The notes beneath the pieces were generated by a model. It was not told the DNA's origin, searched no databases, and saw only the letters and a list, made by a program, of their open reading frames with translations. A DNA stretch of 64,000 bases from an uncultured Pseudomonadota bacterium (lineage in GTDB: Bacteria > Pseudomonadota > Alphaproteobacteria > Rs-D84), in NCBI GenBank assembly GCA_947307295.1, contig CAMZIQ010000001.1, forward strand, positions 40,968 to 104,967, given 5' to 3'. The translations under genes were made by a program, and so were the position numbers. How positions within the stretch are numbered: the first letter of the stretch is position 1; the number at the start of each line of letters is the position of its first letter. This document shows, in pieces, positions 33,661 to 50,039 of the stretch.

Positions 33661-36600
33661 TTAAAAGTTATATCTGAATTTCAACATACCTGTTTGAGAT
33701 GTGTAATCTTTACGAACATCTATATCATAATTGATAGAGAAATCCATTGCACGATATTTCATACCCAAACCGATACCAAATTCACCACCCAAACGATTCA
33801 AACGTTCACCACGCAAAGTATAAGAATCTACACCTGGCATTGTGACGGTTGCAACGTTTTTATCAGACAACATATCGTATTTGATTGCAGCATTTAATTG
33901 AGGGATAAATGTTGTATATTTATCAGCAACTACATTAAACGCATACTTTGCACCCAAAACGCCTGTTAAGAAATCTGTATCTTTGGATTTAATTTTAGAC
34001 CCAAAAGAATCAGTATAATCACTAGCATTTACATGCAAATAACGCAATCCCAATTCAGGTGTCACACCACTTGCAAAATTATATCCTGTCGCAACAGTAC
34101 CACCAAACGCATTAACGTCATAGTCAGCAGTTTTTGCAGTTCCCAAAACATCAGCTGTTTCAGAGAAATCAGACCAAGTATAATTGGCAACAGCATTCAC
34201 ATACCATTCTGCTGGCTTATATTGACCGTACAAGAATACTGTGTTGCTGTCGATTTCTGTATCACGTACAGAAGTGATATCAGAATGAGCAAACGAATAA
34301 CCTGCTCCAACTTTCCAAACTTTGTTGATTGTTCCGTCCATACCTGCTGCGATTCCACGGGTATATCCGCTGAACGCATCATCTTGTTTAGATTTATTGA
34401 ACAAGCCCTGTGCCCAAACACCACCAGATGTAAAGTTCACATCACCACCACTACGTCCAATCGTTGGCGCAGCCATACGAGCACCAGCCAAATTTGCTAC
34501 AGTAGTTTGAACCGAAGTAGCAACAGATTGTTTTACAGATTCATTTTCCGGATGCACCGCCTTGGCAGCATGTTCAACTTCTTGTTGTGCAATTGGTGTT
34601 GCTTCTGCCAACTTTTCTTGCATCTTTTCAGCAACTTCGTTCAACTTTTCAGACGAAGATTGTGACATACCCAAAATCGCAGCAGCACTGTTTTCAGACA
34701 AATTATTTTCTTCTGCAATTGCCTCAACAGATTTCAAAGTTGCTGTCACATCCTTGTCTTCATTTGTCCATGACAAATCATAAATTGTACTGGAAACTCT
34801 ATTTTTTGCACTTGCTAAAACTTTGTCACCAAACACATGATAAGTTCCTGCATCATTGAATATCAAAGACAATGTTCCATCACCAGCAAAAGCATCTGTC
34901 GCTGTTAATTGAGCATCACCACTTCTGACTGTTGCAATCAAAGTTCCAGCCAAATCAATTGTACCTTGGTTAATAGATGCAGTTCCGATATTCAAAGTTG
35001 CACCATTTGCGATTGACAATGTTCCATCACCAGTAATACCACCATCCATTGTGGTTGTTCCAGATGCAACTGTCAAAGAACCAACATTATGAATATCATT
35101 AGCTAAACCATTTGCTGTATTACCAGTAAATGTATTTGTCCCAGCCAAAGTAATATCACCAACATTGTAAATAGCGCCACCGTTTGTAGTTGCTGTATTA
35201 CCAGTAAACGTCACGCCATTTATACGTGCGCCATACTTTGTCACAACATTTCCTTCATCAACAGTATTGGACAAAGAATTTGCAATCGCACCACCATAAA
35301 CAGCGTTGTTTGTTGTAAATGTGCCACCATTTACTGCCAAAGAAGATTTCGCACCTGGTTGAGCGGACGAAATTCCACGTGTAGAAATCGCACCACCCCA
35401 AGTACCAGATTCATTAGATGTAAATGTAGAATTTGTTATGGTCGCAACACTGTCATCATACATAAATATTGCACCACCACCTTCATTAGAATCTGTTGAA
35501 TTTACCCCGATTACTGTACCGGTCGTCTGGTTTCCTTCAAATGCAGAACCTGTCACATTTAATATAGCATCAGAAATGATTGCTCCACCTTCTGCACCTG
35601 CTGTATTATCTGTGAAAGTGCTGTTCAAAATATCTATGGTCATACCTTGTGAATATTTATTATTGGCAAACGCCGTAATACCCATTTGACCAATCGCACC
35701 ACCAGCAGTATCTGACAGGTTGTCTTCAAATGAAGTATTGGTGATAGTCAATGTTTTCACTTTACTGGCTGCATTTTCAGGCGTAGATTGATTTGTTATA
35801 CTGCCCGATACAAGTAATGCACCACCAATTGCTACGTCTCCACCATTGGCATGGTTGTTATTAAATAATAAATTATCCAAAACAGCACTTACATTTACAC
35901 TAGATGACAAAGCGCCACCTTGTTGTGCAGTATTTCCTGTAAATTCAACACCGTTATTGATAACAAATCCATTACCGTCATAAACCGTGCCAGCCAAAGC
36001 CAAAGCACCACCTGTATTAAATGCTTTATTATCAATGAATTTTACACCAGTACCAAATGTAGGAGTTGACCCGACAGCACTGATATAAACCGCACCACCA
36101 TTTCCTTTTGTAGATGTGGCACCTGTTCCATCAAGATTAGCAAAACCTGCTTTGTTTTCTCTGAATATAACATTATTACCTATATGTAAATTTCCATCTT
36201 TGCCAGGATTGCTTGCTGGACTCAGTCCGCCGGATGTCAAAGCACCACCACCTGCTGTCTTTGCAAGGTTATTTGTAAATGTTGTTCCATCTGCTATGGT
36301 CAAAGTATTTTGGTCTCCAGCAATAGCGCCGCCGCCAGAACCGCCGCTAAAAGACGAAACATTTTGTTCAAACGAACCAGACACGGTCACATTACCGCCG
36401 CCTGACAAACTTACAACAGCACCTCTTGATGCTGTATTTCCTGTAAATGTCCCATCTATATTTGCCTCAGAAGCCAAAATATAAAATACAGATTTTTGAT
36501 TATTTTCAGCTTCTATATTTGTCGCAACAAGATTAACATTTTCGCCATAGACCAAACTATAAGCTCCGCTGTTGCCTTCGAAATGCACATTATCAAGAAC

Positions 36601-37563
36601 TATATTATTCTTTGTTGTAGAACTGCTGTTATCCGCATATATAAACGCACCATTAACCGCACTATTAAACCCAGATACATTTACATTTCTTACTGTTAAA
36701 TCTGTATTTGGGCTAACAGATAAATTATCAGTAAAAGCCGTCACCTGACCATTTGAAATAGTGTATGCCTTAGAATTCGTTTCCAACGTCGGACTAGCTT
36801 TCAAATCTGTTGGTGTCGTATCATAAGCAGCATAATATTCTTTGCCATCTATTATATAAGTATCATGTGGCTTCGCATTTATCGTATAAGTAAACAACTC
36901 ATGTTCTTTGATTGTATAATGTCCTTCGCCGTCAGAAACAAATCCATCCAAAGCTACTTGATAAGAGCTACTAGAACTTTTTGTAGAATAAAACTTTGTT
37001 GTCGTTGTAATATCTTCTGGTGTAGGGTTAGCTTGATTTACATACGCATAAACCAAATTGTTGTTTTCATCTCTAAACGCAACATATTTACCAGAACTGT
37101 TTTCTGCAGAATAAGTTAATGTCTTTGTAGTTCCTTCCGCATCTATAGAACATTTTGGCTCTGCATTAGTACCAAACTTCATATAAACTGTTCCAATTTC
37201 TTCAGTTCTTTCATAATCAGAATATATCGCACTTCCCACATTTATAGAAGAATAATAAAACACAGTGTCTGTTCCATCCATTGTTGCCCTATACACAGTA
37301 TAAGAACTTGATTTTTCAGGCAACGCAACAGGAGTATTCAAAACAGATATATTGTGATTACCGCCATCTATAACCGTGTTAGAATTAACGGTGTTATATG
37401 GTGTATTAAAAGAAATATCCCCTGCTAAATTAATATTTCCACCATTTGTTAGTGCTGTATTAAAATCTGCCACATTAGCGACATTCACAGCCATTGCAGG
37501 CATCACCAATAATGCTGGTAATACAGAAACACCAACTAATAAGTTGTGAAATTTTTTATTCAT
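33661..37563 (-). CDS. type Va autotransporter with a Pmp/Sca-like passenger (GGA[IL] and FxxN repeat motifs) and a C-terminal beta-barrel translocator
   Basis: Signal peptide MNKKFHNLLVGVSVLPALLVMPAMA. Many passenger motifs such as GGAI, FTDN, FTSN, FTGN. The C-terminal ~280 aa are beta-barrel-like and end in …FRYNF. Confidence 0.75.
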   Translation of the reverse strand: MNKKFHNLLVGVSVLPALLVMPAMAVNVANVADFNTALTNGGNINLAGDISFNTPYNTVNSNTVIDGGNHNISVLNTPVALPEKSSSYTVYRATMDGTDTVFYYSSINVGSAIYSDYERTEEIGTVYMKFGTNAEPKCSIDAEGTTKTLTYSAENSSGKYVAFRDENNNLVYAYVNQANPTPEDITTTTKFYSTKSSSSSYQVALDGFVSDGEGHYTIKEHELFTYTINAKPHDTYIIDGKEYYAAYDTTPTDLKASPTLETNSKAYTISNGQVTAFTDNLSVSPNTDLTVRNVNVSGFNSAVNGAFIYADNSSSTTKNNIVLDNVHFEGNSGAYSLVYGENVNLVATNIEAENNQKSVFYILASEANIDGTFTGNTASRGAVVSLSGGGNVTVSGSFEQNVSSFSGGSGGGAIAGDQNTLTIADGTTFTNNLAKTAGGGALTSGGLSPASNPGKDGNLHIGNNVIFRENKAGFANLDGTGATSTKGNGGAVYISAVGSTPTFGTGVKFIDNKAFNTGGALALAGTVYDGNGFVINNGVEFTGNTAQQGGALSSSVNVSAVLDNLLFNNNHANGGDVAIGGALLVSGSITNQSTPENAASKVKTLTITNTSFEDNLSDTAGGAIGQMGITAFANNKYSQGMTIDILNSTFTDNTAGAEGGAIISDAILNVTGSAFEGNQTTGTVIGVNSTDSNEGGGAIFMYDDSVATITNSTFTSNESGTWGGAISTRGISSAQPGAKSSLAVNGGTFTTNNAVYGGAIANSLSNTVDEGNVVTKYGARINGVTFTGNTATTNGGAIYNVGDITLAGTNTFTGNTANGLANDIHNVGSLTVASGTTTMDGGITGDGTLSIANGATLNIGTASINQGTIDLAGTLIATVRSGDAQLTATDAFAGDGTLSLIFNDAGTYHVFGDKVLASAKNRVSSTIYDLSWTNEDKDVTATLKSVEAIAEENNLSENSAAAILGMSQSSSEKLNEVAEKMQEKLAEATPIAQQEVEHAAKAVHPENESVKQSVATSVQTTVANLAGARMAAPTIGRSGGDVNFTSGGVWAQGLFNKSKQDDAFSGYTRGIAAGMDGTINKVWKVGAGYSFAHSDITSVRDTEIDSNTVFLYGQYKPAEWYVNAVANYTWSDFSETADVLGTAKTADYDVNAFGGTVATGYNFASGVTPELGLRYLHVNASDYTDSFGSKIKSKDTDFLTGVLGAKYAFNVVADKYTTFIPQLNAAIKYDMLSDKNVATVTMPGVDSYTLRGERLNRLGGEFGIGLGMKYRAMDFSINYDIDVRKDYTSQTGMLKFRYNF

Positions 37564-37631
37564 TATAAAATCTCCTTTCTTCATACATATAAAATGTTAT
37601 CACATTATTTTGATAAATCAAATCATCATTA

Positions 37632-37655
37632 TAAAAAATGTCCCGGTTGGGACAT
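37632..37655 (-). terminator. rho-independent terminator (hairpin atgtcccggttgggacat)
   Basis: Hairpin flanked by an A-run (plus), which is a T-run on the minus strand; downstream of 37661..38395. Confidence 0.55.
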
Positions 37656-37660
37656 TTTTC

Positions 37661-38395
37661 TTATTTGTTGTTTTTAAAATACAATTTTGCATATTCTGCC
37701 ATCACATTTATCATCATTCCTCGATAACCGAATTTATCCCAATTATGTGAAGCTGTTTCCAATTCCACCCTGAAATCTTCAAAAGAAGCCTGTTCCCAAT
37801 CTATAAAGAAAGTGATATCAAACGTTTTTGTATCCAACATAAAATTTTGCCAAATATCTTTTTGAAACCACCCATACAAAAAACCAGGTTTGTCTTCGGG
37901 GTCAGATTTCAAATCACGAAGTTCCACCGGATCACTTTTACCAATTACATACAAAAAATTAGCAATTTGTTTTGCGATATGTACCTGATGTTGCCCAATA
38001 ACAGATGGCTTCACATCTGTTAACAATGTTCCGTGTGCAAATTCATATTTGCGCACATAGATGTTTTTATAAGGGATTATTTTCATCAGCGGTATTTTAA
38101 TTGGCGAAATTCCATAGAAAGCATCAACTATGCGTTTTTCACGAATTGCGACATCTTTTCCATCTGTTAAAAGAGGAAACTTAAACACATGTTTATTATT
38201 TAAAATCACAACAAAATTTTTACAACCATATCCAACCATAGTTTTTATTTTGCGTTGCTTCATATTTTTAGCAAAATGACGGACAAAACGAATATATTCG
38301 CGAATCTGCGGATAACGAATCATCGTCCGCACTTTGTCACGCAAAGGTTTAGACCATATAAAACCACATACTATATTAGATATAAAATGTCGCAT
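37661..38395 (-). CDS. small atypical kinase-fold protein (Kdo/WaaP/choline-kinase-like?), 244 aa
   Basis: Choline-kinase-like FIDWEQASF motif and a degenerate catalytic-loop-like QKDIWQN; lysine in HVFKFP. Weak. Confidence 0.35.
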   Translation of the reverse strand: MRHFISNIVCGFIWSKPLRDKVRTMIRYPQIREYIRFVRHFAKNMKQRKIKTMVGYGCKNFVVILNNKHVFKFPLLTDGKDVAIREKRIVDAFYGISPIKIPLMKIIPYKNIYVRKYEFAHGTLLTDVKPSVIGQHQVHIAKQIANFLYVIGKSDPVELRDLKSDPEDKPGFLYGWFQKDIWQNFMLDTKTFDITFFIDWEQASFEDFRVELETASHNWDKFGYRGMMINVMAEYAKLYFKNNK

Positions 38396-38477
38396 TTTTT
38401 GCCTTTTATTCTGATGAATATAATCATAGGATAAAAAATACCCTTATGCAAACCAAAAAACTATTACGTTCTTTGCA

Positions 38478-40385
38478 CTATTTTAATTTATACTTAAAAA
38501 CACGAATTCCGAACAAATCTACCTTTAGATAATTGTTATTAGATACATAATGTCTGTAAATCGGTATACCAAATATAGTATATTTCAAATTCCGTTTAAT
38601 TTTTGTATTAGATAAATATTCACAACTAATAACTTTCTGACCGATATAAGATTTTATTTCATTATAGATATTGTTATATTTGGTTTCACAAGACTTATTT
38701 GTGCCGATACATTCAAGAACTTTGCACAAAGAATATGCATCATCCCAACGATATGGTTTTTCACGAAATTCTGGTGTCCCCAGTCCATATAAAAAACCCT
38801 TTGTTTTTATCAAAAAATCTAATTCTTTATAATTTGATTTACGGACAGCCAATTGGAAATCTATTAATTTCACACGACCACCAGACAAGACCAAATTTTT
38901 CAAAGTAATATCCCGATGAACAACATCAGAATCTTTTAAGCATTTAAATATCTGATAAATATCATCCAACCAAATATTCCTTTGTTTATCAGATAATTTG
39001 TGAGTTTTTAAAAACTCGTGTAAATTTTCACCTTCTGTCCATTCGTATGCAACAAAATGTTCGTTTGGGCAATCTCGATAATACATCGGCCTAATAAAAT
39101 GAACTTTATCCATATCGTACAGAATTTTTCCCATCTGATATTCATTTACATATATGCCAGGGATATCGCTGATTTTTATAAACATACGTGTTCCGTCTGT
39201 ATCGTATCCAGATGCAAAGACATTGTATGCCGCGTTCACAGAATCAGTATAAACTGTTTGAACATTTTTAAAACCAAAATTTGATTCAAGATATTTTTTA
39301 TATTCATTAAATTTTACAAGCTTTTCAGAATAATACACAGACGTATCATCCGGACGTGTGAAATTATAATTATTTTTATTCATAAAACCAGTTAACAATT
39401 GAAAATACAAATCAAACGGTGATGCGTACTTTTTTACATCATATTTCTTATCCAGTTTTAATTTTTTGAACAAATCCGCTATTTTATCATAATAATCAGA
39501 AGCAATTTTTTGCTTATTAATTAAACAATGATAAATCAACATATAAAAATAATTTTCTGTATTTGGGACGCGTATTACATTTCCATAATATTCAAATGTT
39601 TTGAATATATTGTTATCCCATTTTTTATCATGATAGTTATTATTTATATCCCATAAATCAATGTAAATACCCTTATCTTTTACTTTTATTAAATAGTGTG
39701 GTCTTGGTCTGTCTGTGAAATGCGCCTGCCCGCCAACAATCCAACGCGCAGCATCATAATTTTGAACCATAATATCAATATCACCATGTTCAGAACTATT
39801 CAAAGTTTGTTCCAGATTTTCAAAACCACGTAAAACTATATAATCTGTTGTTGCATTTAATGTATAAAAAAACTGTTTCAAACTGTCCCAACCATGTGCA
39901 CCGGTTATATCACGATGAACAGTTTTTACTTTGCCATCCCATTTTTTCGGTAAAGATTTTTTCAAATCATCATAATTTAACCCCAATAATAACGCAGAAT
40001 CATGATTCGTTTCATTAACAGAATTTGTAGTATGAATTTTGTGTCCACCGCGCGTCCATTGTCTGTATTTTTGTTTCAATGAAAATATATTTACGTTCAC
40101 ACGTTCATGCCCACGCGAAGTTTCAACCATTTCATATTTTGGTTTATTATCACGAACCACCAACAACAAAAACCCAGTTGTGCCACATTCCTTTTCTTTT
40201 TCAGAACGATTAGGCAAATTCACCCCGTAAAATCTGCTGAAATTATCAGACACACAATCACAAGACCAATGGACATCATACGCAGCCATTATATCCAAAT
40301 GAGATTTAACATCTTCTATAATCTCATTTTCTTTATATCTTGCATTTGCCCAAAGGACTATAAGGTGTATTTCTGGATTTTTCAT
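38478..40385 (-). CDS. two-domain protein: N-terminal LicD/pol-beta-like nucleotidyltransferase-fold region fused to a eukaryotic-like protein kinase domain (635 aa)
   Basis: HGDIDIMV (DxD) motif in the N-terminal half. HRDITLKNLV catalytic loop and DFQ (DFG-like) in the C-terminal half. Confidence 0.5.
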   Translation of the reverse strand: MKNPEIHLIVLWANARYKENEIIEDVKSHLDIMAAYDVHWSCDCVSDNFSRFYGVNLPNRSEKEKECGTTGFLLLVVRDNKPKYEMVETSRGHERVNVNIFSLKQKYRQWTRGGHKIHTTNSVNETNHDSALLLGLNYDDLKKSLPKKWDGKVKTVHRDITGAHGWDSLKQFFYTLNATTDYIVLRGFENLEQTLNSSEHGDIDIMVQNYDAARWIVGGQAHFTDRPRPHYLIKVKDKGIYIDLWDINNNYHDKKWDNNIFKTFEYYGNVIRVPNTENYFYMLIYHCLINKQKIASDYYDKIADLFKKLKLDKKYDVKKYASPFDLYFQLLTGFMNKNNYNFTRPDDTSVYYSEKLVKFNEYKKYLESNFGFKNVQTVYTDSVNAAYNVFASGYDTDGTRMFIKISDIPGIYVNEYQMGKILYDMDKVHFIRPMYYRDCPNEHFVAYEWTEGENLHEFLKTHKLSDKQRNIWLDDIYQIFKCLKDSDVVHRDITLKNLVLSGGRVKLIDFQLAVRKSNYKELDFLIKTKGFLYGLGTPEFREKPYRWDDAYSLCKVLECIGTNKSCETKYNNIYNEIKSYIGQKVISCEYLSNTKIKRNLKYTIFGIPIYRHYVSNNNYLKVDLFGIRVFKYKLK

Positions 40386-40411
40386 ATTATTTTTCCATCA
40401 CAAAAGTTATA

Positions 40412-41269
40412 TTATTTCCAAAACATTTTGCATATAGGTATGCACTCGAATAACACAATCCAATTATTTTTAATCTTTACCAATGGGATAAATCCAAACA
40501 AACGCAATCTAAATTGAGTTCCTGGAACCATCATTTTTGATGCCACACGACGATATTCAGGATATTTAGATGATATTTCCATACGAATATTTGCAGCAGC
40601 CTCTTCACGAGCATCATTCATACGCTTAGACGTATTATTTTCAAACCATCTGTAATGAATTAAAATTTCTTGAAAATTATAAAAATGAGTCACTTCCATC
40701 AAACGTGTCCACAAACGATAATCTTCAGCCGGGGTATAAAATTCTTCATATTCAATATTATTATCAACCAAAACAGATTTACGTATCATTGATGCAGAAT
40801 GTATCACGAAACAATTTTCAGTCAGATGAACACGAATCTGCGAATCCATTTCAGGAGTTTTACATAAATCATCATAATTATCCCCAAAATAATGAGCCCA
40901 ACCAGACACAACACCAATATGTGGATGAGAATCCAGATATGCAACTTCTTTTTCCAAACGTTCTGGCACAGATACATCATCATGGTCGAATATAGCCAAA
41001 TATTCCCCCGCAGCCATTTTCACCAACCTATTCCGCGAAGGCGTAATCCCCATATTTTTTGTATTTTTTATATATTTTACACGTTTATCTTTTTTAGCAT
41101 AATCTTTGACAATCTTTTCAATTTCTTTATTATCAGGGCTGTCATTTAAAATCAAAAATTCAAAATCTGTAAAAGTCTGATTTAAAATAGATTCAATCAT
41201 TTCACGCAAATGCGTTGGATTAGTATTATAAATCGGCGTTAAAACAGATACTTTTGGTGCTTTTGGCAT
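40412..41269 (-). CDS. family 2 glycosyltransferase
   Basis: VSVLTPIYN, ILNDSPDN and AIFDHDDV (DxD) GT2-A motifs. Confidence 0.85.
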   Translation of the reverse strand: MPKAPKVSVLTPIYNTNPTHLREMIESILNQTFTDFEFLILNDSPDNKEIEKIVKDYAKKDKRVKYIKNTKNMGITPSRNRLVKMAAGEYLAIFDHDDVSVPERLEKEVAYLDSHPHIGVVSGWAHYFGDNYDDLCKTPEMDSQIRVHLTENCFVIHSASMIRKSVLVDNNIEYEEFYTPAEDYRLWTRLMEVTHFYNFQEILIHYRWFENNTSKRMNDAREEAAANIRMEISSKYPEYRRVASKMMVPGTQFRLRLFGFIPLVKIKNNWIVLFECIPICKMFWK

Positions 41270-41384
41270 TGGCTTTCCTTTGTTATATTTATAAAAAATA
41301 GGATAATATTATTGTGCCATAAAAATAGATAATAGCAAGATGTTTATTTTATAAATGATGAAAAAAACACAGTTGCGCCAAGCA

Positions 41385-41430
41385 CAATTCACGAACCAAC
41401 ATAATCAAAATCAGACAAGAGATTGATGAA
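41385..41430. repeat. island repeat part 2, copy A (caattcacgaaccaacataatcaaaatcagacaagagattgatgaa)
   Basis: 46-nt element, 70–85% identical to copies at 41894, 42557 and 43336. Confidence 0.7.
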
Positions 41431-41453
41431 TTTGTTTTAAAATATTATCAGCG

Positions 41454-41798
41454 TTATTTTTTACGCCCTCTACCCCCGTCTAATAAAACGATGTGTGTTT
41501 CAATCATCCCGCTTTTCATACGTCTACGTGCTACCGTAAAACCTCGTTCATAAGATCTTTGAAAATTTTTCAATATGTTTTCAATGTTACCAATTTCAAT
41601 TATACTGCGAACCGCGTTGTTATATCCTGGTTTCTCGGTTGGCCCAATAGAAAGAACTTTTTCCACATGCCACTTTACAGCACTAATTTCCTGATCAGTC
41701 AATGTGCGTCCCAAACCTTCATTTTTTAAGCTTGTCAGCGATAAATTTTGTTTTTTCATTGAATCATTTGCTTTTTGCAATTCTTTATTGGCATCCAT
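41454..41798 (-). CDS. hypothetical protein (114 aa)
   Basis: ORF flanked by island repeats A and B; no recognisable motif. Confidence 0.45.
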   Translation of the reverse strand: MDANKELQKANDSMKKQNLSLTSLKNEGLGRTLTDQEISAVKWHVEKVLSIGPTEKPGYNNAVRSIIEIGNIENILKNFQRSYERGFTVARRRMKSGMIETHIVLLDGGRGRKK

Positions 41799-41893
41799 AA
41801 TTTATCCTTTTTTATATTATTACACCCCTATTATATAACACAAAAAAACATATTGTCAATATTTATTTAAAAAATTCACTTTCGCCACCTATG

Positions 41894-41939
41894 CAATTCA
41901 CGAGCCGATATAATCAAAATCGGAAAAGAGATTGATGAA
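41894..41939. repeat. island repeat part 2, copy B
   Basis: caattcacgagccgatataatcaaaatcggaaaagagattgatgaa. Confidence 0.7.
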
Positions 41940-41975
41940 ATGAAAGACACATTAAACCTGCCAAATTTAATTTGA

Positions 41976-42491
41976 TTACGGAATAAATGTTTCAATATAT
42001 TTCCAACCGTTTTCATCTAAAACGAAATGAAAACATTGGGCATTTTGAATACCGTCAACTTTATGTCCGCACGCCCAACATAGTGCACGTGTTACGCCAC
42101 CATGAGAAGCAATCGCAATATTTTCATGTTTATCTGTCTTAACAATTTGTTCTAGGTAATTTTTTATAAGTTTGAAATTATCGTTTATTTGCTTTTTCTT
42201 TTCTTCGTCTTCAACATCCCAAAACCAAAATATCGCTTCTTTGAGGGCGTCATTGGTTACAATTTTGATATCTGTACCATTTGTGATTGCAATTTTTGCG
42301 GTATCTATTGCACGTCTGTAAGGACTTGAATAAACAATCTGAATATTTTTATCTTTAAAAAATTCGTGCAACTTGGTTGCCTGTATAACACCTAAATCTG
42401 TCAACCAAGCATCAATACCTGTGCCATACCGAACACCAACTTCGTTTTCATTTGTTTGTCCATGCCTGAAAAAATAAAAATGCCTTTCCAT
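41976..42491 (-). CDS. histidine phosphatase family protein (PGAM/SixA-like)
   Basis: RHGQT catalytic motif at the N-terminus and …ASHGG…; 171 aa. Confidence 0.8.
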   Translation of the reverse strand: MERHFYFFRHGQTNENEVGVRYGTGIDAWLTDLGVIQATKLHEFFKDKNIQIVYSSPYRRAIDTAKIAITNGTDIKIVTNDALKEAIFWFWDVEDEEKKKQINDNFKLIKNYLEQIVKTDKHENIAIASHGGVTRALCWACGHKVDGIQNAQCFHFVLDENGWKYIETFIP

Positions 42492-42523
42492 GAAATAACC
42501 TTTTCAAAAATTATATCACAACA

Positions 42524-42600
42524 GTTCGAATATGACAAATTTTCGATATTTTACATGATTCACAAACCACCATAATCAAAATCAAACAAGAAATAATAGA
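42524..42600. repeat. island repeat copy C (truncated part 1 fused to part 2)
   Basis: gttcgaatatgacaaattttcgatatttt followed by gattcacaaaccaccataatcaaaatcaaacaagaaataataga. Confidence 0.65.
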
Positions 42601-42614
42601 TTTCAAAAACAAAT

Positions 42615-42623
42615 TTATGGTAT
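42615..42623 (+). promoter_or_regulatory. extended -10 promoter (TGgTATAAT) for the NlpC/P60-like gene
   Basis: tggtataat 11 nt upstream of the ATG at 42634. Confidence 0.4.
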
Positions 42624-42633
42624 AATATAGAAT

Positions 42634-43206
42634 ATGCAAACAAATATAGATTTCTTTAACAATTTGTTCCGACAGGACTTCGTTTCTGAATACAATCATT
42701 CTAATTATATTGATAAATTTGGTGGTAAAAATTTCTTTCATATGGATTGCAGCGGTTTCGTTTATTGGTGCTTGGCACAAATGGGTTATAAACGGGCGTT
42801 GGTTGAATTGAAAAATTTTTTAAAAGAAAACGATTTTATAAAAATAAATAGATTTTTCTGTAAAGACTTTGCATTTATTCATGAACATAAAAATAAATTA
42901 ACCTATTGGGATTTCATGGACAGACCTATTTCTGGTTCTATTATGGTTGTTGTATTTCCTGATGGTAATGGTCATTGTATGTTTATTGATAACATCATCG
43001 ATAATAATAAAACTAAACTATGTTTGTGGGTGATTGATTCTACCCAATACCCACATAAAAGCGACACCAGAACAGATGAAGAAACAGGCATAGGTATTGG
43101 CGAAATTGAAATAACAACTAAAAACGGCGATTGGTTCTATGATTCTGGCAACAAATCATTACCAATAAGAAAAGCAGAAATATATTTTATATCACCCAAA
43201 AAATAA
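42634..43206 (+). CDS. NlpC/P60-like (papain-fold) cysteine peptidase/amidase-like protein
   Basis: DCSGFVYWC catalytic-Cys motif with a downstream His (GNGHCMFID); 190 aa. Confidence 0.5.
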   Translation: MQTNIDFFNNLFRQDFVSEYNHSNYIDKFGGKNFFHMDCSGFVYWCLAQMGYKRALVELKNFLKENDFIKINRFFCKDFAFIHEHKNKLTYWDFMDRPISGSIMVVVFPDGNGHCMFIDNIIDNNKTKLCLWVIDSTQYPHKSDTRTDEETGIGIGEIEITTKNGDWFYDSGNKSLPIRKAEIYFISPKK

Positions 43207-43209
43207 AAA

Positions 43210-43382
43210 GTTTGAAAATGACAATTTTTTGATATTTTTCCAAAACAAAACTTTCGAACTCGGTGAAAGTATTAGCAAACAAATAAAAAACCGCCCTGAA
43301 ACGAACGATTGTCTATCTTGGTTGTGCTATCTGTGCAATTTGCGAGCCTATATCATCAAAACTGGACAAGAGATTAATGAAG
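43210..43382. repeat. island composite repeat copy D (part 1 palindrome, degenerate tRNA-3'-end-like segment, part 2)
   Basis: gtttgaaaatgacaattttttgatatttttccaaaacaaaactttcgaactcggtgaaag … tcttggttgtgctatctgtg … caatttgcgagcctatatcatcaaaactggacaagagattaatgaa. Confidence 0.7.
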
Positions 43383-43427
43383 CGAAAGACAAACTAGGAC
43401 TCTGATTAAATAATATTTGTTTAGTAA

Positions 43428-44015
43428 TTATTTACCCTTGTATTCACTTACCAGTTTAGAAAAAATCAAATGATCTGTCCATTTACCGTTGGATAGTTTC
43501 GCATATTCTCTTAAACGGCCATCCAAATGATACCCACTGCTTAAAATAGATTTTAGTGACCTTTCATTGTTTTCCATACATTGACGACTCATACGGTGTA
43601 TTTTTAAATCGTTGAATGTGATTTTTTCCAAAAGATTATGGATTTCATGATTAAAACCATGACCCCATGCTGATTTAACAAACCAAACATTACCTGGGTT
43701 AACAGTATCATTTTCTTTATTATACGAAACGCCATGAAAGCCGATCAATTTACCACCATGAAACACATACCATAAAACCCCATTGAATTTAAATGCTTCT
43801 GCGTAATTTTTCATTGTTTCAAATGTTTCATCCAATGATTCTGGCAAAGGTTTATCATATTTTGGTGAATAATGTATAAAAGCAAAATCTTCTGGATTTT
43901 CATTTTTAATTGCTTCCCACACCAGTTCAGCATTTTGCATTGTTGGTTCAAGAATACGAAGTTCCAATCTTTCTGTTTTGTGATTTTTTTTGAAGAATTT
44001 AAAAAACTTTTCCAT
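43428..44015 (-). CDS. GNAT family N-acetyltransferase (RimJ/RimL-like)
   Basis: GNAT fold pattern (…VLWYVFHGGKLIGFHGV…NPGNVWFV…); 195 aa. Confidence 0.75.
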   Translation of the reverse strand: MEKFFKFFKKNHKTERLELRILEPTMQNAELVWEAIKNENPEDFAFIHYSPKYDKPLPESLDETFETMKNYAEAFKFNGVLWYVFHGGKLIGFHGVSYNKENDTVNPGNVWFVKSAWGHGFNHEIHNLLEKITFNDLKIHRMSRQCMENNERSLKSILSSGYHLDGRLREYAKLSNGKWTDHLIFSKLVSEYKGK

Positions 44016-44030
44016 ATTATCACCTTTTTA

Positions 44031-44801
44031 TTATTTTTCCGCTTCTGCTATTTTTTTACGTAATTCAGGTTCGTTTTGCTGAACAAAATTATATGACTTT
44101 TCCATAAAATCGTATATGTCTTTACGTTCCAGATATAACTTTTTCATAGTATCAAACAGCAATTTTCCATTTATTTCCATCTCATAAAAATATGAATATG
44201 CTATGTGTTTTGGTTGCTTAACCAAATTTCCAATTTCGGAATTACGAATTATGGTTTCAACAACTATTTCCGATAAAACCCATTTCAAATGTGGGGTATC
44301 ATATTCGTCAGGATTGTCTTTGAAGTATTCGTGCCAAATATAAAACCAAACAAAATGTGTTATTTCATGCAATGCAGCAAATATCGCGTATTCTGGCTCG
44401 AACTTATAGAAAACATCAAAAGTGTATTCTTGTACATTTCGGGGACAAACAGGGTCTAATCCAACGAAACCTACCATATCATTCAAAATTTTTGTACAAT
44501 CATACCCAAAAGTTGATGAATACGCTTGATTTAACTTTTTTGCTACTGGTATCCAATTCGTTTGAAACATTTTTATTGAATTCTGTATATCGTCAGAGTG
44601 CAAAACCGATAATTTTTCCATTTCTTTTCGTATATATTTCAAACGTTCAGATTCTGGTAATTTTCTTGCATATTCGTAATTTAAAGACGGAAACACTTCA
44701 AAAAGCCGTTTAGACCACCAAGCTGGTTTATCATCTTGCTGTAAAAACAAAATAAAATCCAAATCCTCTTCAAAATCTTTTTGTTTCCAAGTTAGTTGCA
44801 T
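44031..44801 (-). CDS. hypothetical protein with an HExxH motif (putative zinc-dependent hydrolase), 256 aa
   Basis: ALHEITHFVWF contains HEITH; 16 nt upstream of the GNAT gene (probable operon). Confidence 0.45.
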   Translation of the reverse strand: MQLTWKQKDFEEDLDFILFLQQDDKPAWWSKRLFEVFPSLNYEYARKLPESERLKYIRKEMEKLSVLHSDDIQNSIKMFQTNWIPVAKKLNQAYSSTFGYDCTKILNDMVGFVGLDPVCPRNVQEYTFDVFYKFEPEYAIFAALHEITHFVWFYIWHEYFKDNPDEYDTPHLKWVLSEIVVETIIRNSEIGNLVKQPKHIAYSYFYEMEINGKLLFDTMKKLYLERKDIYDFMEKSYNFVQQNEPELRKKIAEAEK

Positions 44802-44845
44802 TGTACCAATCCTTTAATAGCTGTAGTACGATTGTATCACAAAAA

Positions 44846-45010
44846 GTTCGAAAATGCCAAAAAATTGCGATTTTTCAAAATTAAACTTTCGAACTCGATG
44901 AAAAACTTGCGATTCCAACAAAAACCGCACTTATGGACGGTTATGTAAACTATGGTTGGGGTACACGGTGCCTTGATACACAATAATAAAAATCAAAAAA
45001 ATCTCCAGTT
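44846..45010. repeat. island composite repeat copy E (part 1 palindrome, exact 16-nt tRNA-Gln 3'-end repeat, degenerate part 2)
   Basis: gttcgaaaatgccaaaaaattgcgatttttcaaaattaaactttcgaactcgatgaaaaac … tggttggggtacacgg … cacaataataaaaatcaaa. Confidence 0.7.
44953..44968. repeat. exact 16-bp direct repeat of the tRNA-Gln 3' end (tggttggggtacacgg); att-like
   Basis: Identical to 45195-45210, which is the reverse complement of the tRNA 3' terminus including CCA. Confidence 0.8.
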
Positions 45011-45156
45011 GTCGATTTTTTAATATTTTTCTAATTGTCTATCTGCGTACTCGCTCGCCCCCATTACAATGGTGGCTGCGCGGCAATCGTAACGATTTTG
45101 TTTTACAAAATCTACTGCTTGTCGAACCTGCGATTCTCGTCTCGTTATCACCAAAA

Positions 45157-45186
45157 CCAAAAATTAAAACCCCCACAAGGGGTGTT
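45157..45186 (-). terminator. hairpin plus T-run immediately downstream of the tRNA-Gln 3' end
   Basis: On the minus strand: aaacaccccttgtggggg followed by ttttaatttt. Confidence 0.5.
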
Positions 45187-45194
45187 TAAATTCT

Positions 45195-45268
45195 TGGTTG
45201 GGGTACACGGACTCGAACCGCGATATACAGAGTCAGAGTCTGCTGTTCTACCATTAAACTATACCCCA
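45195..45268 (-). tRNA. tRNA-Gln (anticodon CUG)
   Basis: Hand-folded cloverleaf: 7-bp acceptor with a U1:A72 pair typical of bacterial tRNA-Gln (UGGGGUA…UACCCCA), D-arm GUUU/GAAC, anticodon loop CUCUGAC, T-arm CGCGG-UUCGAGU-CCGUG, discriminator A, encoded CCA. Confidence 0.85.
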
Positions 45269-45304: not shown

Positions 45305-46030
45305 TCAATCAAATATTTTCAAATCTTTAAAGTCATTATGGCTGGCTTTTGGAATTAATTTTATATCTGTTTCATCTGCCCACGTTTTTGCTAATTCATA
45401 TGGTACAACATCATCACGTTCACCAACAAAATGGGTTTGTGCAACGGCTGGCAAAGTTTCCATATTCAAAGATTCATCTAGCGGTTCATCACCAAAATAT
45501 TCTGTCCATTTTTTATGATTTAAAACCCCAGCAATCGTTATCCATTTTTCAAAATTCATTTTTGGATTTTGTTTTATAATCAGACCAGAAACCATCGCAC
45601 CACCAGAATATCCAATAATCGTTATTTTTTTATTTTTCGCGATTTGCTTAATCACCCTGCTTTCTGCATCTATGACTTTCTGTGAAAATCGCCCATCTGT
45701 CCAATCTGATTCGTTACAATTTTTATCCATTATAAATTGGCAAGGTCTTGCAACATAAACAACGTTTTCAAAATTATCAGCCACAGCTAAATCTCGCACA
45801 AAAGTTCCACGTGGTGTTGGATTACTTGTCGGTTGACCGTATGAATCAAAAGCATATCCATCGCCTTCGATATAAACATGAATTTGATTATTTTCAGGAT
45901 TATTTATTTTCTGCCAAGTTGCGATTTTATAAGAATCTGTTTGCACTGGTACATATTGAAAGTCATCTGGCGCAACCCAGTTTGCGCCTGCACATCCAGA
46001 CAAAAAAAGAATCAAAAACAATTTTTTCAT
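45305..46030 (-). CDS. lipoprotein with an alpha/beta-hydrolase (esterase/lipase-like) fold
   Basis: Lipobox LFLILFLSGC and GxSxG nucleophile motif IIGYSGGAMV. Start at MKKLF. Confidence 0.6.
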   Translation of the reverse strand: MKKLFLILFLSGCAGANWVAPDDFQYVPVQTDSYKIATWQKINNPENNQIHVYIEGDGYAFDSYGQPTSNPTPRGTFVRDLAVADNFENVVYVARPCQFIMDKNCNESDWTDGRFSQKVIDAESRVIKQIAKNKKITIIGYSGGAMVSGLIIKQNPKMNFEKWITIAGVLNHKKWTEYFGDEPLDESLNMETLPAVAQTHFVGERDDVVPYELAKTWADETDIKLIPKASHNDFKDLKIFD

Positions 46031-46113
46031 ATACCTAATATTTACATTTTTACAAAAATCAGTCAACAATGATGGAAAACTAAAATTTTTGTGTTATAAT
46101 CGCACCCGTTGAG

Positions 46114-46122
46114 TAAAAGATT
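46114..46122 (+). promoter_or_regulatory. extended -10 promoter (TGtTATAAT) for the DUF1015 gene
   Basis: tgttataat 23 nt upstream of the ATG at 46146. Confidence 0.4.
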
Positions 46123-46145
46123 ATACAAAAACAAAAGGAATTATT

Positions 46146-47384
46146 ATGAAAATAAAACCATTTGCAGGTGTAAGACCACCAAAAGATTTAGCAAAAGAAG
46201 TCGCATCACGTCCTTATGACGTTTTGAATTCTGTTGAAGCAAAGACTGAAGCTGGTGAAAAATCTTTATTGCACATTATTAAACCAGAAATTGATTTTGA
46301 CCCAATTGCCGATGAACACGAACAAAAAACTTATGACAAAGCTGTTGAAAATTTCAAAAAATGGCAAGAACGTGGCTGGCTGACCCAAGACGACAAAGAA
46401 ATGTATTACATCTATGCACAAACTATGGATGGTCGCACTCAATATGGTTTGGTAGCCGCAGCAAATGTTGATGATTACATGACCGGCAAAATTAAAAAAC
46501 ACGAATTAACCAGAAAAGAAAAAGAAGACGATCGTATGATTCACGTTCGTATTCAAAATGCTAATTTGGAACCTGTGTTCTTTGCTTATCCTGATGTTGC
46601 TGAAATGAATGATTTGGTTTCTGATTGGATTGCAAAACACGAACCAGAATATGACTTTGTTGCAGAAGATGGATTTGGTCATACTTTCTGGAAAATTGAT
46701 GACGATGCAACAAATGCTCGCATCACAGAAATTTTTGCAAAAGTTCCTGCGTTTTATGTTGCAGACGGTCACCACAGAACCGCAGCTGCTGCACGTGTTG
46801 GTGCTGAAAAACGTGAACAAAACCCAAATCACACAGGCAACGAAGAATATAACTATTTCTTGGCTGTAATTTTCCCAGAAAGCCAATTACACGTTATCGA
46901 CTATAACCGCGTAGTCAAAGATTTAAACGGATTGTCTGCTGATGAATTTATCGAAAAATTGCGTGAATCTTTTGAAGTAAAAGAAATGGGTTCAGAAATT
47001 TACCATCCAAATAAACTACACAACTTTTCTATGTATCTGGATGGCAAATGGTATTCTTTGACAGCCAAAGCTGGGACTTATAATGACAACGATCCAATCG
47101 GCGTTTTAGACGTGACAGTATTATCCAATTTGGTGTTTGACAAGATATTGAATTTGGGTGATTTGCGCACATCAAAACGCATTGACTTTGTCGGTGGAAT
47201 TCGCGGTCTTGGCGAATTGAAAAAACGCGTAGATTCTGGTGAAATGGTTGTTGCGTTTGCTTTGTACCCTGTGACAATGCGTCAAATTATTGACATTGCA
47301 GACACAGGCAACATTATGCCTCCAAAGACAACTTGGTTTGAACCAAAATTACGTAGTGGTTTGGTAATTCACAAATTATCATAA
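46146..47384 (+). CDS. DUF1015 family protein (412 aa)
   Basis: N-terminal MKIKPFAGVRPPKDLAKEVASRPYDVLNSVEA matches the DUF1015 signature as recalled; typical length. Confidence 0.65.
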   Translation: MKIKPFAGVRPPKDLAKEVASRPYDVLNSVEAKTEAGEKSLLHIIKPEIDFDPIADEHEQKTYDKAVENFKKWQERGWLTQDDKEMYYIYAQTMDGRTQYGLVAAANVDDYMTGKIKKHELTRKEKEDDRMIHVRIQNANLEPVFFAYPDVAEMNDLVSDWIAKHEPEYDFVAEDGFGHTFWKIDDDATNARITEIFAKVPAFYVADGHHRTAAAARVGAEKREQNPNHTGNEEYNYFLAVIFPESQLHVIDYNRVVKDLNGLSADEFIEKLRESFEVKEMGSEIYHPNKLHNFSMYLDGKWYSLTAKAGTYNDNDPIGVLDVTVLSNLVFDKILNLGDLRTSKRIDFVGGIRGLGELKKRVDSGEMVVAFALYPVTMRQIIDIADTGNIMPPKTTWFEPKLRSGLVIHKLS

Positions 47385-49061: not shown

Positions 49062-50039
49062 TCAAAAAGCTTTCTCACAATCATCAACTATTTTTGACAT
49101 ATTTTTAATCGCGCTTATTTGTGTCGCATTAAATACAGTCGCTGTTGCAGATGCCACAGTAGTAGCCCCTGCCAACACATTAGATGCGGTATTCAGATTT
49201 TTTTCTTTCTTTTTACCTTCTTCTGAATTGTCATCACGTGTGGTTTTATTATTTGCCAAAACAGATGTTATAGTTCCCACTACACCAGTAGTTGCACCAA
49301 CTGCGCTACCCACCATCGCCCCTTTGGCTTTTTTTATAACAGAACTTAAATCAATTGTTTTTATCATGCTACATTTTGAAATAATATCTTTGGCACGCGA
49401 CAAAGTGGCATCATCCGTATTGTTATCCATTTGCACTTGCATTTGAACAGCCTGTAAATTTTTGATTGATTCTGCACAGTTTTCAATTTTGGTTTCTAAA
49501 TCTTCCTGTTGCACATTTTTTCCAGCAATAATTGCTCCAGCAATATTAGTAGCCCCAGCAACAGCCATTGTTCCTGTTCTAACATTACCCAAAGTTTTTG
49601 ATTTGTCCGTAAGTTGTTCTAATTCCTGTTGTTTTTGTTTCAATTCAGAAGCATTTGATTTCCCTGATAAATCAGCCTTTACAATATCATCTACTGTTAT
49701 TGATATTGTTGATAACTTACTGGTATCTTGATTTTCCGCTTCTTTTCTCAATTCTTCTATTAACTTTCTTAAATCATCTTCAATTTGTTCTGCCTTTCTA
49801 TCCGTGGATGCTTTTGCGATACCCGTTCCAAAAGCAACGGCACCCGAAGCCGTTCCGACACCAGTTATCGCGGTATTAATCCCGGCCATGCGTTTTATAT
49901 CCGCCATCTTGTCAGATATCCCGACACACGCAGTCCGTGCATTATTCAAAGCATTATTTAAATCTGCATCAACAGCAAAAGCAGAAATATTTATCCCGCA
50001 AAAAAATAACAAAAAAACAAACACTTTGGAATTATACAT
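49062..50039 (-). CDS. secreted Gly/Ala/Thr-rich coiled-coil protein (325 aa), paralogous at its N-terminus to the 3423..4628 product
   Basis: Signal peptide; the motif RMAGINTAITGVGTASGAVA matches KIAGISTLGLTAVGVGANIA of 3423..4628. Confidence 0.5.
   Translation of the reverse strand: MYNSKVFVFLLFFCGINISAFAVDADLNNALNNARTACVGISDKMADIKRMAGINTAITGVGTASGAVAFGTGIAKASTDRKAEQIEDDLRKLIEELRKEAENQDTSKLSTISITVDDIVKADLSGKSNASELKQKQQELEQLTDKSKTLGNVRTGTMAVAGATNIAGAIIAGKNVQQEDLETKIENCAESIKNLQAVQMQVQMDNNTDDATLSRAKDIISKCSMIKTIDLSSVIKKAKGAMVGSAVGATTGVVGTITSVLANNKTTRDDNSEEGKKKEKNLNTASNVLAGATTVASATATVFNATQISAIKNMSKIVDDCEKAF

Follow-up and report, generated by a model that had tools for sequence, protein, structure and literature searches.

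The described systems closest to the locus studied here are integrons, together with clusters of attC sites lacking integron integrases (CALIN), the tycheposons and tRNA islands of Prochlorococcus, and cis-mobilizable elements (CIMEs). Integrons and CALIN (see also the review PMC8876359) are one-directional arrays of mostly single-gene cassettes beside a fixed entry site; tycheposons are much larger units that carry their own integrase along with replication and packaging genes (bioRxiv 10.1101/2020.12.28.424599); and CIMEs are deletion derivatives of integrative and conjugative or integrative and mobilizable elements (ICEs and IMEs), one or two of which occupy a site (PMC5704250, PMC6323972). 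Here, we analyzed a stretch of 64,000 nucleotides from an uncultured Pseudomonadota bacterium (contig CAMZIQ010000001.1; referred to as the window), in which a series of small gene-bearing units follows the 3′ end of a tRNA-Gln(CUG) gene. We consider it probable that this series is a chromosomal cassette array, whose units undergo site-specific recombination between copies of a six-base core, CAACCA, and whose recombinase is encoded elsewhere. It is apparently an undescribed, lineage-wide variant of the cassette array, and the earlier impression that such an architecture had no precedent held up, as we found no match to it in Rfam, in Pfam, in phage, plasmid, and viral collections, or in the literature searched.

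The host of the window is an uncultured gut alphaproteobacterium near Candidatus Enterousia. Enterousia belongs to the order Rs-D84, whose genomes mostly measure 0.75 to 1.0 Mb, and the described Enterousia genomes are smaller than 1 Mb; the study reporting this mentions neither mobile elements nor integrases (PMC12306168). For comparison, we retrieved 12 loci through the DUF1015 gene adjoining the tRNA, which come from uncultured gut Alphaproteobacteria (several labeled Candidatus Enterousia), and 39 further loci by scanning gut and rumen metagenomes with a pattern from the tRNA-like end of the repeat R described below. The DUF1015 protein of the window is 84 to 92% identical in amino acid sequence to those of the 12 retrieved relatives. 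Related loci (labeled L and a number) covered 10 kb on each side of the anchor, and the comparison sequences were metagenome-assembled genomes (MAGs) or metagenome contigs throughout.

Both ARAGORN and Rfam place the tRNA-Gln(CUG) gene where the original prediction had put it, and the second, exact copy of its last 16 nucleotides (TGGTTGGGGTACACGG) reported there is indeed present. This 16-mer occurs only at 44953 and 45195 in the 64 kb, against a chance expectation of 0.19 even with three mismatches. Further along the array, a 46-nt repeat, earlier called part 2, has four copies, at 41385, 41894, 42556, and 43336. Against a profile built from the copies of the window and of L003, these four reach E values of 1e-7 to 2e-17; the same profile found no further copy in the window. 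Together with what had been described as a degenerate tRNA copy, part 2 makes up a cassette-end repeat of ∼85 nt, referred to as R, which ends in …GGCTCGCGAATTGCACAGATAGCACAACCA. We found ∼70 copies of R in about 45 related loci, and in all 20 loci where a tRNA and R occur together, the copies without exception lie 3′ of the tRNA and share its strand. Successive junctions are spaced by a median of 922 nt (range, 447 to 2,364; n = 41). The anchor tRNA is tRNA-Gln(CUG), replaced by tRNA-Gln(UUG) in L100 and L110 and by an initiator-type tRNA-Met (fMet) in L099, and all of these end in CAACCA, as do all R copies other than the mutated or truncated ones of the window. Read in tRNA orientation, a junction consists of …GC(A)CAACCA followed by variable sequence: the nine bases to its left are near-invariant (GC.CAACCA), and variation starts at position +1.

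In the sequence searched, R is restricted to tRNA loci. No copy was found away from cassette arrays in 11 DUF1015-anchored genome loci (from the series L001 to L012, where some R matches have no detected tRNA-Gln alongside), and neither R nor X0c, the structured element introduced below, occurs outside tRNA-linked arrays in the rest of the window or in 20 control loci of other taxa. The 3′ part of R and the terminator following it are homologous to the tRNA 3′ end and its own terminator, while R copies of different species are more alike than R and the tRNA of the same genome. Against Rfam 15, R and the ORF-less cassette X0 (ORF, open reading frame) matched only tRNA at the gathering threshold and nothing credible at E values up to 1 to 5. 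The idea that R or X0 travels on a phage, a plasmid, or a virus was considered and dropped: eight viral matches consisted of the 17-mer search pattern only, and the plasmid and phage collections gave no match.

The comparison of loci places the break points of the cassettes at the core. L124 and L096 are 100% identical over more than 470 nt starting exactly at CAACCA, whereas their left sides share only the core, which is preceded by the tRNA-Gln body in L124 and by the R repeat of another cassette in L096. The entire shared block measures 1,167 nt (99.4% identical), has cores at both ends, and has different neighbors on both sides. Among 19 internal ends of inter-locus alignments with at least 95% identity, 10 are no more than 10 nt from an annotated junction in each of the two loci, and roughly three others coincide with unannotated ends of X0 or of partial R copies. 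Left-arm types combine freely with what follows; ATAGCACAACCA, for example, precedes no fewer than 15 different right-hand sequences. In L116, near 5955, a class I module (see below) begins at its canonical first base with no preceding R, which could reflect either insertion at a secondary site or a precise deletion.

Cassettes are also more similar between species than the genes around them. The X1 cassette, which encodes an HExxH protein and a GNAT acetyltransferase, is 88% identical in nucleotide sequence over 1,608 nt between the window and L116 (6028 to 7626), with the similarity stopping at the core of R copy D, and an alpha/beta-hydrolase cassette is 95% identical between L008 and L116; in both pairs, the DUF1015 genes reach 78%. 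Likewise, a methyltransferase cassette is 95.5% identical between L102 and L116, compared with 69% for the adjacent choloylglycine-hydrolase-family (CBAH) gene. Content, in turn, varies between constant flanks: in L008, the flanks known from the window (an autotransporter on one side, tRNA-Gln and DUF1015 on the other) enclose other cassettes, and in L012 rpoA follows directly after the tRNA, leaving an apparently empty site. The original prediction had suggested comparing related genomes for an empty tRNA site or a different set of units, and we found the second and, apparently, the first. Across loci, the cargo consists of small enzymes and proteins without a family, including GNATs, histidine phosphatases, alpha/beta hydrolases, a SAM (S-adenosylmethionine)-dependent methyltransferase, an ART-PolyVal ADP-ribosyltransferase, PHP, a rhamnosyltransferase, a subtilase, and MYG1.

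The core can be followed by sequences of three classes. Class I is a module containing a terminator and a promoter, while classes II and III are the ORF-less X0 cassettes. The class I module, which had earlier been described as a palindrome (part 1), starts with a rho-independent terminator hairpin, followed by GAGTTCGAAAGT, ∼30 nt of spacer, CACTTTCGAAC overlapping the −35 region, and TGTGATATAAT. The spacer is often palindromic with compensatory changes (GTGGCGAAAATTCGCCAC versus GTGGTGAAAAATCACCAC). Such a palindrome between two TTCGAA boxes is seen in many class I modules, for example at 44846 to 44896 of the window, at 313 to 420 of L105, and at 1470 to 1581 of L127; it overlaps the −35 region of the cassette promoter, and a role as a shared operator or as a structural element is conceivable. 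Each intact cassette is predicted to start with a σ70-like promoter and a terminator of its own, and the window holds 8 terminator-like sites versus 1.9 expected, including those of X0, X1, and X2. The “aaaaaccgc” stretches that had been read as a conserved sequence left of each repeat copy turned out to belong to these rho-independent terminator hairpins and are not shared sequence. At many junctions, AACCA of the core pairs with a TGGTT located just past the terminator, forming a hairpin of 45 to 50 nt. When junctions were folded as single-stranded DNA, five of the eight tested gave z scores of −2.75 to −4.67, and the two internal junctions of the window gave values near 0.

The unit next to the tRNA, X0, had been described as empty; it is instead a structured cassette with covarying hairpins. 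Members of the X0 family are 180 to 270 nt long and combine a terminator hairpin with an inverted, degenerate copy of the tRNA 3′ end and with the core X0c, to which long forms add an AT-rich inverted repeat. They end in a direct copy of 13 to 21 nt of the local tRNA 3′ end. This terminal copy is free of mismatches in most loci, and its sequence follows that of the tRNA in three species (the homologues in L008 and L009 match the local tRNA end in 16 of 16 and 15 of 16 nt, respectively). X0c itself, ∼135 nt in the family, has three hairpins joined by the conserved linkers GGTTCGAMAAcaAGTAGAT and ATCGTTACGG. A covariance model retrieved 21 copies, all of them from alphaproteobacterial loci; the 20 control loci yielded none. 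Standard pairs make up 93% of the cells in its helices versus 73% in shuffles, double changes are seen in 11 of 17 pairs, and the covariation score, taken from an alignment that was fitted to the model, is 0.436; shuffles give 0.132, with none of 500 attaining the observed score, and sliding the partners gives at most 0.054. All three hairpins are also present when copies of differing sequence are folded individually. X0c may be an RNA, a recombination structure of single-stranded DNA, or a pair of fused att arms. A tmRNA, including the permuted form, was rejected, as ARAGORN reported none in the window or the metagenome loci.

Copies of the tRNA 3′ end are not limited to tRNA-Gln: 12 of the 31 tRNAs in the related loci have one, of 13 to 30 nt, at a distance of 160 to 270 nt downstream. 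An X0c copy follows tRNA-Val in L011 (15950 to 16143, minus strand), where the insert closes with 18 nt that repeat the 3′ end of that tRNA exactly. The ORF-less insert after tRNA-Gly in L126 (12268 to 12428, plus strand) has a different core and again ends in an exact copy of its tRNA 3′ end, of 16 nt. In L127 (2229 to 2416, minus strand), an exact 30-nt copy of the tRNA-Gln 3′ end is found 188 nt on, and the insert is unrelated to X0c and looks like a different integration footprint.

R has a further property, in that its conservation (60 unique copies) follows a clear 3-nt period. The strand opposite to the tRNA would encode ∼30 amino acids, (W)LCx[LMV]CNSRAEL[LVIA]EIGQEIDExKDKLGLxNLY, followed by a stop codon, with frequent synonymous changes (GTT/GTA, GAG/GAA, ATT/ATC, and TTG/TTA). 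This frame contains 4 stops in 990 codons versus 12 to 112 in the other frames, and its ratio of nonsynonymous to synonymous polymorphism (pN/pS) is 0.60. Given that one forward frame has the same wobble position, the strand was assigned from the stop counts and the conservative amino acid replacements. Part 2 shows the codon periodicity of a predicted micro-ORF, whose start would fall at the core (TGG-TTG-TGC, the reverse complement of GCACAACCA). The notion that part 2 is a decayed tRNA half was discarded, because its tRNA similarity is limited to the last ∼30 nt and the following terminator, the remainder being codon periodic on the other strand. Nor does the micro-ORF appear to be the N terminus of an integrase or another large protein, since a search of 5.8 billion proteins returned only one ORF of 72 amino acids, or to extend upstream of the core, where its frame is no more open than the others. 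A comparison of the peptide with the PDB returned nothing meaningful.

That no recombinase is visible, as had been stated before, holds both for the scanned ORFs of the window and for about 50 related loci. Pfam scans covered about 50 ORFs of the window, the ORFs beside the tRNA in related loci, and 144 nonredundant ORFs within 7 kb of arrays, and an NCBIfam scan covered 10 selected proteins without a Pfam match. They revealed no integrase, transposase, HUH enzyme, or other recombinase domain, with the limit that about ten window ORFs matched no Pfam family, so that a very divergent enzyme could escape. Several candidates were set aside individually: the products of 47472 to 49031 and 49062 to 50039 are predicted to be secreted or surface proteins from their signal-peptide-like N termini; that of 13351 to 14310 has no PDB relative; and cassette-borne proteins of 345 to 465 amino acids had no Pfam match and a single spurious weak match in NCBIfam. 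Xer recombination at dif is likewise not indicated, as no ATAA-N6-TTAT motif lies in the 45 nt to the left or right of any of the 89 junctions. The sequences compared here contain no recognizable cognate ICE or IME, and searches of viral, phage, and plasmid collections were negative.

Content that varies between constant flanks, alignments that break at the core, cassettes more alike than the genes around them, and the lack of a recombinase in the scanned sequence together support the original prediction of repeated site-specific recombination at a tRNA-derived core. In such an array, the 3′ end of tRNA-Gln would be the fixed entry site, like attI of integrons, with tRNA-Gln(UUG) and tRNA-fMet taking this part in relatives. 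A cassette begins right after the core with the terminator-like hairpin in which AACCA pairs with the downstream TGGTT, usually continues with the shared promoter module and one or two cargo genes, and ends in R; ORF-less X0 cassettes close instead with the 3′ terminus of the local tRNA in copy. Recombination of core with core would then insert, delete, or exchange entire cassettes, presumably through circular intermediates. Insertion beside the tRNA would push older cassettes outward while their cores decay, as copies A, B, and C of the window may have done, although this direction of growth is itself conjectural. The recombinase, whose existence and family we infer, would act in trans from elsewhere in the <1-Mb genome, and the hairpins (as single-stranded DNA), the micro-ORF, and X0c may each have a role in the reaction.

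Several points weigh against this account. The scans revealed no recombinase, which leaves the enzymatic step entirely inferred, and an integrase located more than 10 kb away or on a helper element would escape the scans of related loci. The data are metagenome assemblies throughout, and circular intermediates as well as paired empty and occupied sites within one population are hypothetical. The window has only three intact cores, so most of its array looks fossilized; with copy C truncated and the cores of A and B mutated, its distal half is probably fixed. Some 5′ boundaries of cassettes lie off any annotated junction (e.g., L008 9059). Within L116, segments that span junctions (at 9246 and 10756) are nearly identical, which shows that the array also undergoes gene conversion or homologous recombination.

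A bolder version of site-specific recombination, which we hold to be possible but unlikely, would make the array a platform for cassette capture distinct from integrons, with docking at the CCA end of tRNA-Gln or tRNA-fMet, recombination of folded hairpins that have the core in their stem, and no integrase in cis. The work could then be done by one housekeeping or domesticated recombinase of the <1-Mb genome, or by a single-strand (HUH-type) or RNA-assisted mechanism, and X0 and the micro-ORF would be machinery instead of scars. The array might, alternatively, have arisen by tandem accretion, in which integrase-bearing islands or prophages entered serially at tRNA-Gln and later lost their integrases and most of their cargo, leaving partial-tRNA scars among the remaining genes, as in the decay of tycheposons or genomic islands. 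Stacked arrays with partial tRNAs are documented in Prochlorococcus (bioRxiv 10.1101/2020.12.28.424599), and the direct repeats of 13 to 30 nt downstream of 12 of 31 tRNAs agree with such a history, as does the homology of the R 3′ part and its terminator to their tRNA counterparts. However, we found no integrase or fragment of one in about 50 loci, and the units are standardized, with a size of about 0.9 kb, a common 5′ module, and a common 85-nt end. Moreover, 95 to 99% identical units recur, still without an integrase, in genomes whose core genes are 69 to 82% identical, and R copies are closer to one another across species than to their own tRNA. We thus give tandem accretion only a small chance of being the explanation.

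Cassettes might also be swapped by homologous recombination only, following DNA uptake, in the manner proposed for minimal mobile elements in Neisseria and with no site-specific enzyme involved. In this case, R and the 5′ modules would be portable homology made of conserved regulatory sequence, such as a terminator, a promoter or operator, or a small gene, for which the ∼200 nt of conserved sequence flanking each cassette, the credible σ70 promoters and terminators of the 5′ modules, and the signs of gene conversion in L116 could speak. What makes this improbable is the position of the break points: they cluster at the core and are not spread through the repeats, the tRNA-cassette junction of L124 and the R-cassette junction of L096 share just 6 nt on their left, too little for homology to set the break there, and the module near 5955 in L116 starts at its canonical first base without an R in front of it. 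The same 6 nt argue against the view that nothing moves at all, in which paralogous copies of an intergenic regulatory element or small gene would sit in a fixed region resembling an operon and would only seem shuffled through faulty assembly or binning, as so short a shared core cannot produce assembly joins. All comparison sequences do come from MAGs or metagenome contigs, repeats are known to yield chimeric assemblies, and the distal copies of the window are degenerate; yet independent assemblies from different hosts present one architecture with different content, and cassette identity exceeds core-gene identity, making an artifact very improbable. We therefore retain recombination at the CAACCA core as the preferred reading in describing the units of the window.

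The features of the window are collected in Table 1. Most of the gene content foreseen for the array was recovered, namely the GNAT, HExxH, NlpC/P60-like (weak), and histidine phosphatase proteins, the 114-amino-acid protein, the GT2 enzyme, and the kinase; the nucleotidyltransferase half proposed for the 635-amino-acid protein remained unconfirmed. The claim that every boundary carries the same composite element stands for X1/X2 alone (43207 to 43392), which has all three parts, while the other boundaries are incomplete. The X0/X1 boundary has part 1 and the 16-mer with a different left arm, the copy at X2/X3 is truncated and has neither the tRNA-like end nor the terminator, and those at X3/X4 and X4/X5 have mutated cores (CAACTG and GAAAGTG) and no part 1. 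X5 did not survive as a bounded unit, since no repeat separates it from the autotransporter, and the gene for a 244-amino-acid protein forms with the autotransporter gene a conserved flank that is also present in L089, where other genes occupy the position of 38478 to 41367. The inverted X2 cassette recurs with an identical junction in L003, L115, L117, L119, and L124, and a cassette homologous to X4 precedes an R repeat in L097.

Table 1. Features of the tRNA-Gln-linked array and its flanks (positions in the window)
Feature	Position	Strand	Basis or remark
DUF1015 (proximal flank)	46146–47384	plus	Pfam
Alpha/beta hydrolase (proximal flank)	45305–46069	minus	Pfam
tRNA-Gln(CUG)	45195–45268	minus	ARAGORN; Rfam tRNA, 67.5 bits; sole tRNA in window
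Array-proximal recombination core CAACCA, last six tRNA bases	45195–45200	minus	Defined from break points
X0, ORF-less structured cassette	44953–45194	minus	Covariance-model match, 90.4 bits, E = 1e-19; covarying helices
X0 terminator hairpin	45169–45183	minus	
X0 structured core X0c	45047–45159	minus	
X0 AT-rich inverted repeat	about 44969–45046	minus	
X0 terminal exact 16-nt copy of tRNA 3′ end	44953–44968	minus	
X1 5′ module (earlier part 1)	44802–44952	minus	Same module class after tRNAs or R repeats in many loci
X1 module terminator	44908–44942	minus	
X1 module inverted box GAGTTCGAAAGT	44885–44896	minus	
X1 module inverted box CATTTTCGAAC	44846–44856	minus	
X1 module promoter TTGGCA-N18-TACAAT, upstream TG	44831–44860	minus	Predicted
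X1 cargo, HExxH protein (motif HEITH)	44031–44801	minus	Pfam
X1 cargo, GNAT acetyltransferase	43428–44015	minus	Pfam
Micro-ORF (L/M)CYLCNLRAYIIKTGQEINEAKDKLGL, then stop	43322–43405	plus (opposite tRNA)	Within R
R copy D, sole intact R in window, ends GCACAACCA	43319–43392	minus	Core 43319–43324; nhmmer E = 7e-17
Cassette X2	42539–43318		5′ module 43207–43318; terminator 43289–43310
X2 gene, weak NlpC/P60-like, inverted orientation	42634–43206	plus	Pfam
X2 end, R copy C, truncated	42542–42612		
Cassette X3	41877–42538	minus	
X3 promoter TTGTCA-N17-TATAAT	42510–42538	minus	Predicted
X3 cargo, histidine phosphatase (His_Phos_1)	41976–42491	minus	Pfam
X3 end, R copy B, mutated core	41872–41943	minus	
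Cassette X4	41368–41876	minus	
X4 promoter TTGACA-N18-TATAAT	41830–41859	minus	Predicted
X4 cargo, 114-amino-acid protein	41454–41798	minus	No family
X4 end, R copy A, mutated core CAACTG	41370–41433	minus	Doubles as terminator, 41373–41387
Former X5 stretch, variable, no bounding repeat	38478–41367	minus	No R match
GT2 glycosyltransferase	40412–41269	minus	Pfam
635-amino-acid protein with kinase domain	38478–40385	minus	Pfam
244-amino-acid protein (distal flank)	37661–38395	minus	No known family; conserved pair with autotransporter in L089
1,307-amino-acid autotransporter (distal flank)	33661–37584	minus	Pfam Autotransporter and Chlam_PMP

The kinase domain of the 635-amino-acid protein is of the eukaryotic protein kinase type and lies toward the C terminus (about residues 414 to 560); its N-terminal ∼410 residues have no match in Pfam or NCBIfam, where only the kinase region was recognized. 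Antiphage defense as the function of the cargo was rejected, as the comparison with defense systems gave no convincing match and this protein resembles PD-T4-6 and MADS6 only generically and weakly, through its kinase. The GC content is 0.30 to 0.32 over 38000 to 45000, compared with 0.35 to 0.40 in the surrounding core genome, which is consistent with imported DNA.

On the proximal side, the related loci have DUF1015, sometimes together with a CBAH gene, 5′ of tRNA-Gln. The DUF1015 protein of the window is 72 to 79% identical to proteins of Bacteroidales (Alistipes, Rikenellaceae, and others), compared with the 84 to 92% among its own relatives, which suggests a transfer of this gene between phyla within the gut. 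One Enterousia genome has a reverse transcriptase gene (RVT_1; L004 6129 to 7142, minus strand) between tRNA-Gln and DUF1015. Beyond DUF1015 in the window, the two genes at 47472 to 49031 and 49062 to 50039 (both minus) encode proteins with hydrophobic N termini, one Cys rich and the other rich in Ala, Thr, and Gly with coiled-coil-like segments; Pfam assigns neither to a family, the PDB holds no meaningful relative of either, and the second directly borders the array in L116. The distal neighbor varies by genome and is an autotransporter, a CcrM-like methylase, or a surface protein. An autotransporter also borders the array in L008, L092, L101, and L105; that of the window bears the polymorphic membrane protein repeat of Chlamydia, and homologues of variable length stand beside arrays in several genomes. 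In L003, L119, and L112, the entire array is inverted relative to the block of hydrolase and DUF1015 genes (45305 to 47384 in the window). Given these inversions and the differing distal flanks, arrays appear to be placed at break points of rearrangement.

These arrays look like a main gateway for gene flow into reduced gut genomes (mostly <1 Mb), in the form of a standardized plug-in site for single genes that bring their own promoter and terminator. Integrons are reported to be absent from Alphaproteobacteria. If the recombinase is not a classical integrase, the array would be a second, independently evolved answer to the integron problem in a class regarded as integron free, and it would offer a natural set of tools for inserting DNA site specifically at the end of a tRNA. 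By-products of the analysis are the conserved, predicted micro-ORF of ∼30 amino acids inside a recombination repeat and X0c as a new structured element after several tRNA genes.

Among known repeat families, REP (repetitive extragenic palindromic) sequences and bacterial interspersed mosaic elements (BIMEs), miniature inverted-repeat transposable elements (MITEs), and Correia-like elements differ from R and X0c in being dispersed, whereas the latter are confined to tRNA-linked arrays in the sequence searched. As a lead only, X0c recalls REP/BIME elements and their REP-associated tyrosine transposases (RAYTs) by a short motif (GTAG, in some copies GCAG) placed a few bases 5′ of its covarying hairpins, and IS200/IS605 elements by insertion always 3′ of a short motif and by subterminal hairpins at both cassette ends. 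Unlike these systems, the arrays are not dispersed, their cassettes carry cargo genes, and no Y1/HUH transposase was seen in the scanned ORFs. Integrative mobile elements exploiting Xer (IMEX) and pdif modules differ by the dif-like motif that was absent from all 89 junctions.

The resemblance to integrons and CALIN is extensive: besides the one-directional array beside a fixed entry site, it includes a repeated, hairpin-associated site at the end of each cassette, ORF-less cassettes, small-enzyme cargo such as GNATs, sharing between species, and a left arm (GCCCAAC/GCACAAC) similar to the inverse core RYYYAAC. CALIN also share the absence of a nearby intI, but they are further defined by at least two attC sites recognized by a covariance model. 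In contrast to integrons, no Phage_integrase or IntI was found in the ORFs scanned near the array, a tRNA CCA end serves as the entry site, and each intact cassette has its own terminator and promoter, whereas integron cassettes are mostly promoterless and depend on a common Pc. The 85-nt R is conserved in sequence and has coding periodicity, while attC, an imperfect palindrome with R″, L″, L′, and R′ boxes, is conserved in structure rather than sequence, and the break falls at the 5′ base of the hairpin and not at the 3′ GTTRRRY box.

With the tycheposons and tRNA islands of Prochlorococcus, the array has in common a streamlined host, stacking at a tRNA with partial tRNA copies in between, newcomers that push older elements outward (as we propose for the array), degenerate remnants, and adaptive cargo (bioRxiv 10.1101/2020.12.28.424599). 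The partial-tRNA direct repeats typical of tRNA-integrating islands are present, as a 16-nt copy in the window and as copies of at least 13 nt at 12 of 31 tRNAs; in place of a tyrosine recombinase with replication and packaging genes, the scanned cargo comprises small enzymes and proteins without a family, in units of about 0.5 to 2.4 kb that lack mobility genes and have standardized ends. CIMEs likewise have att sites on their flanks, lack integrase and transfer genes, sit at the 3′ ends of tRNA genes, and are presumed to depend for movement on a related integrase acting in trans (PMC5704250, PMC6323972). Compared with them, the array has no known cognate ICE or IME and is made up of a family of miniature cassettes, of which up to five or more stand together in one array.

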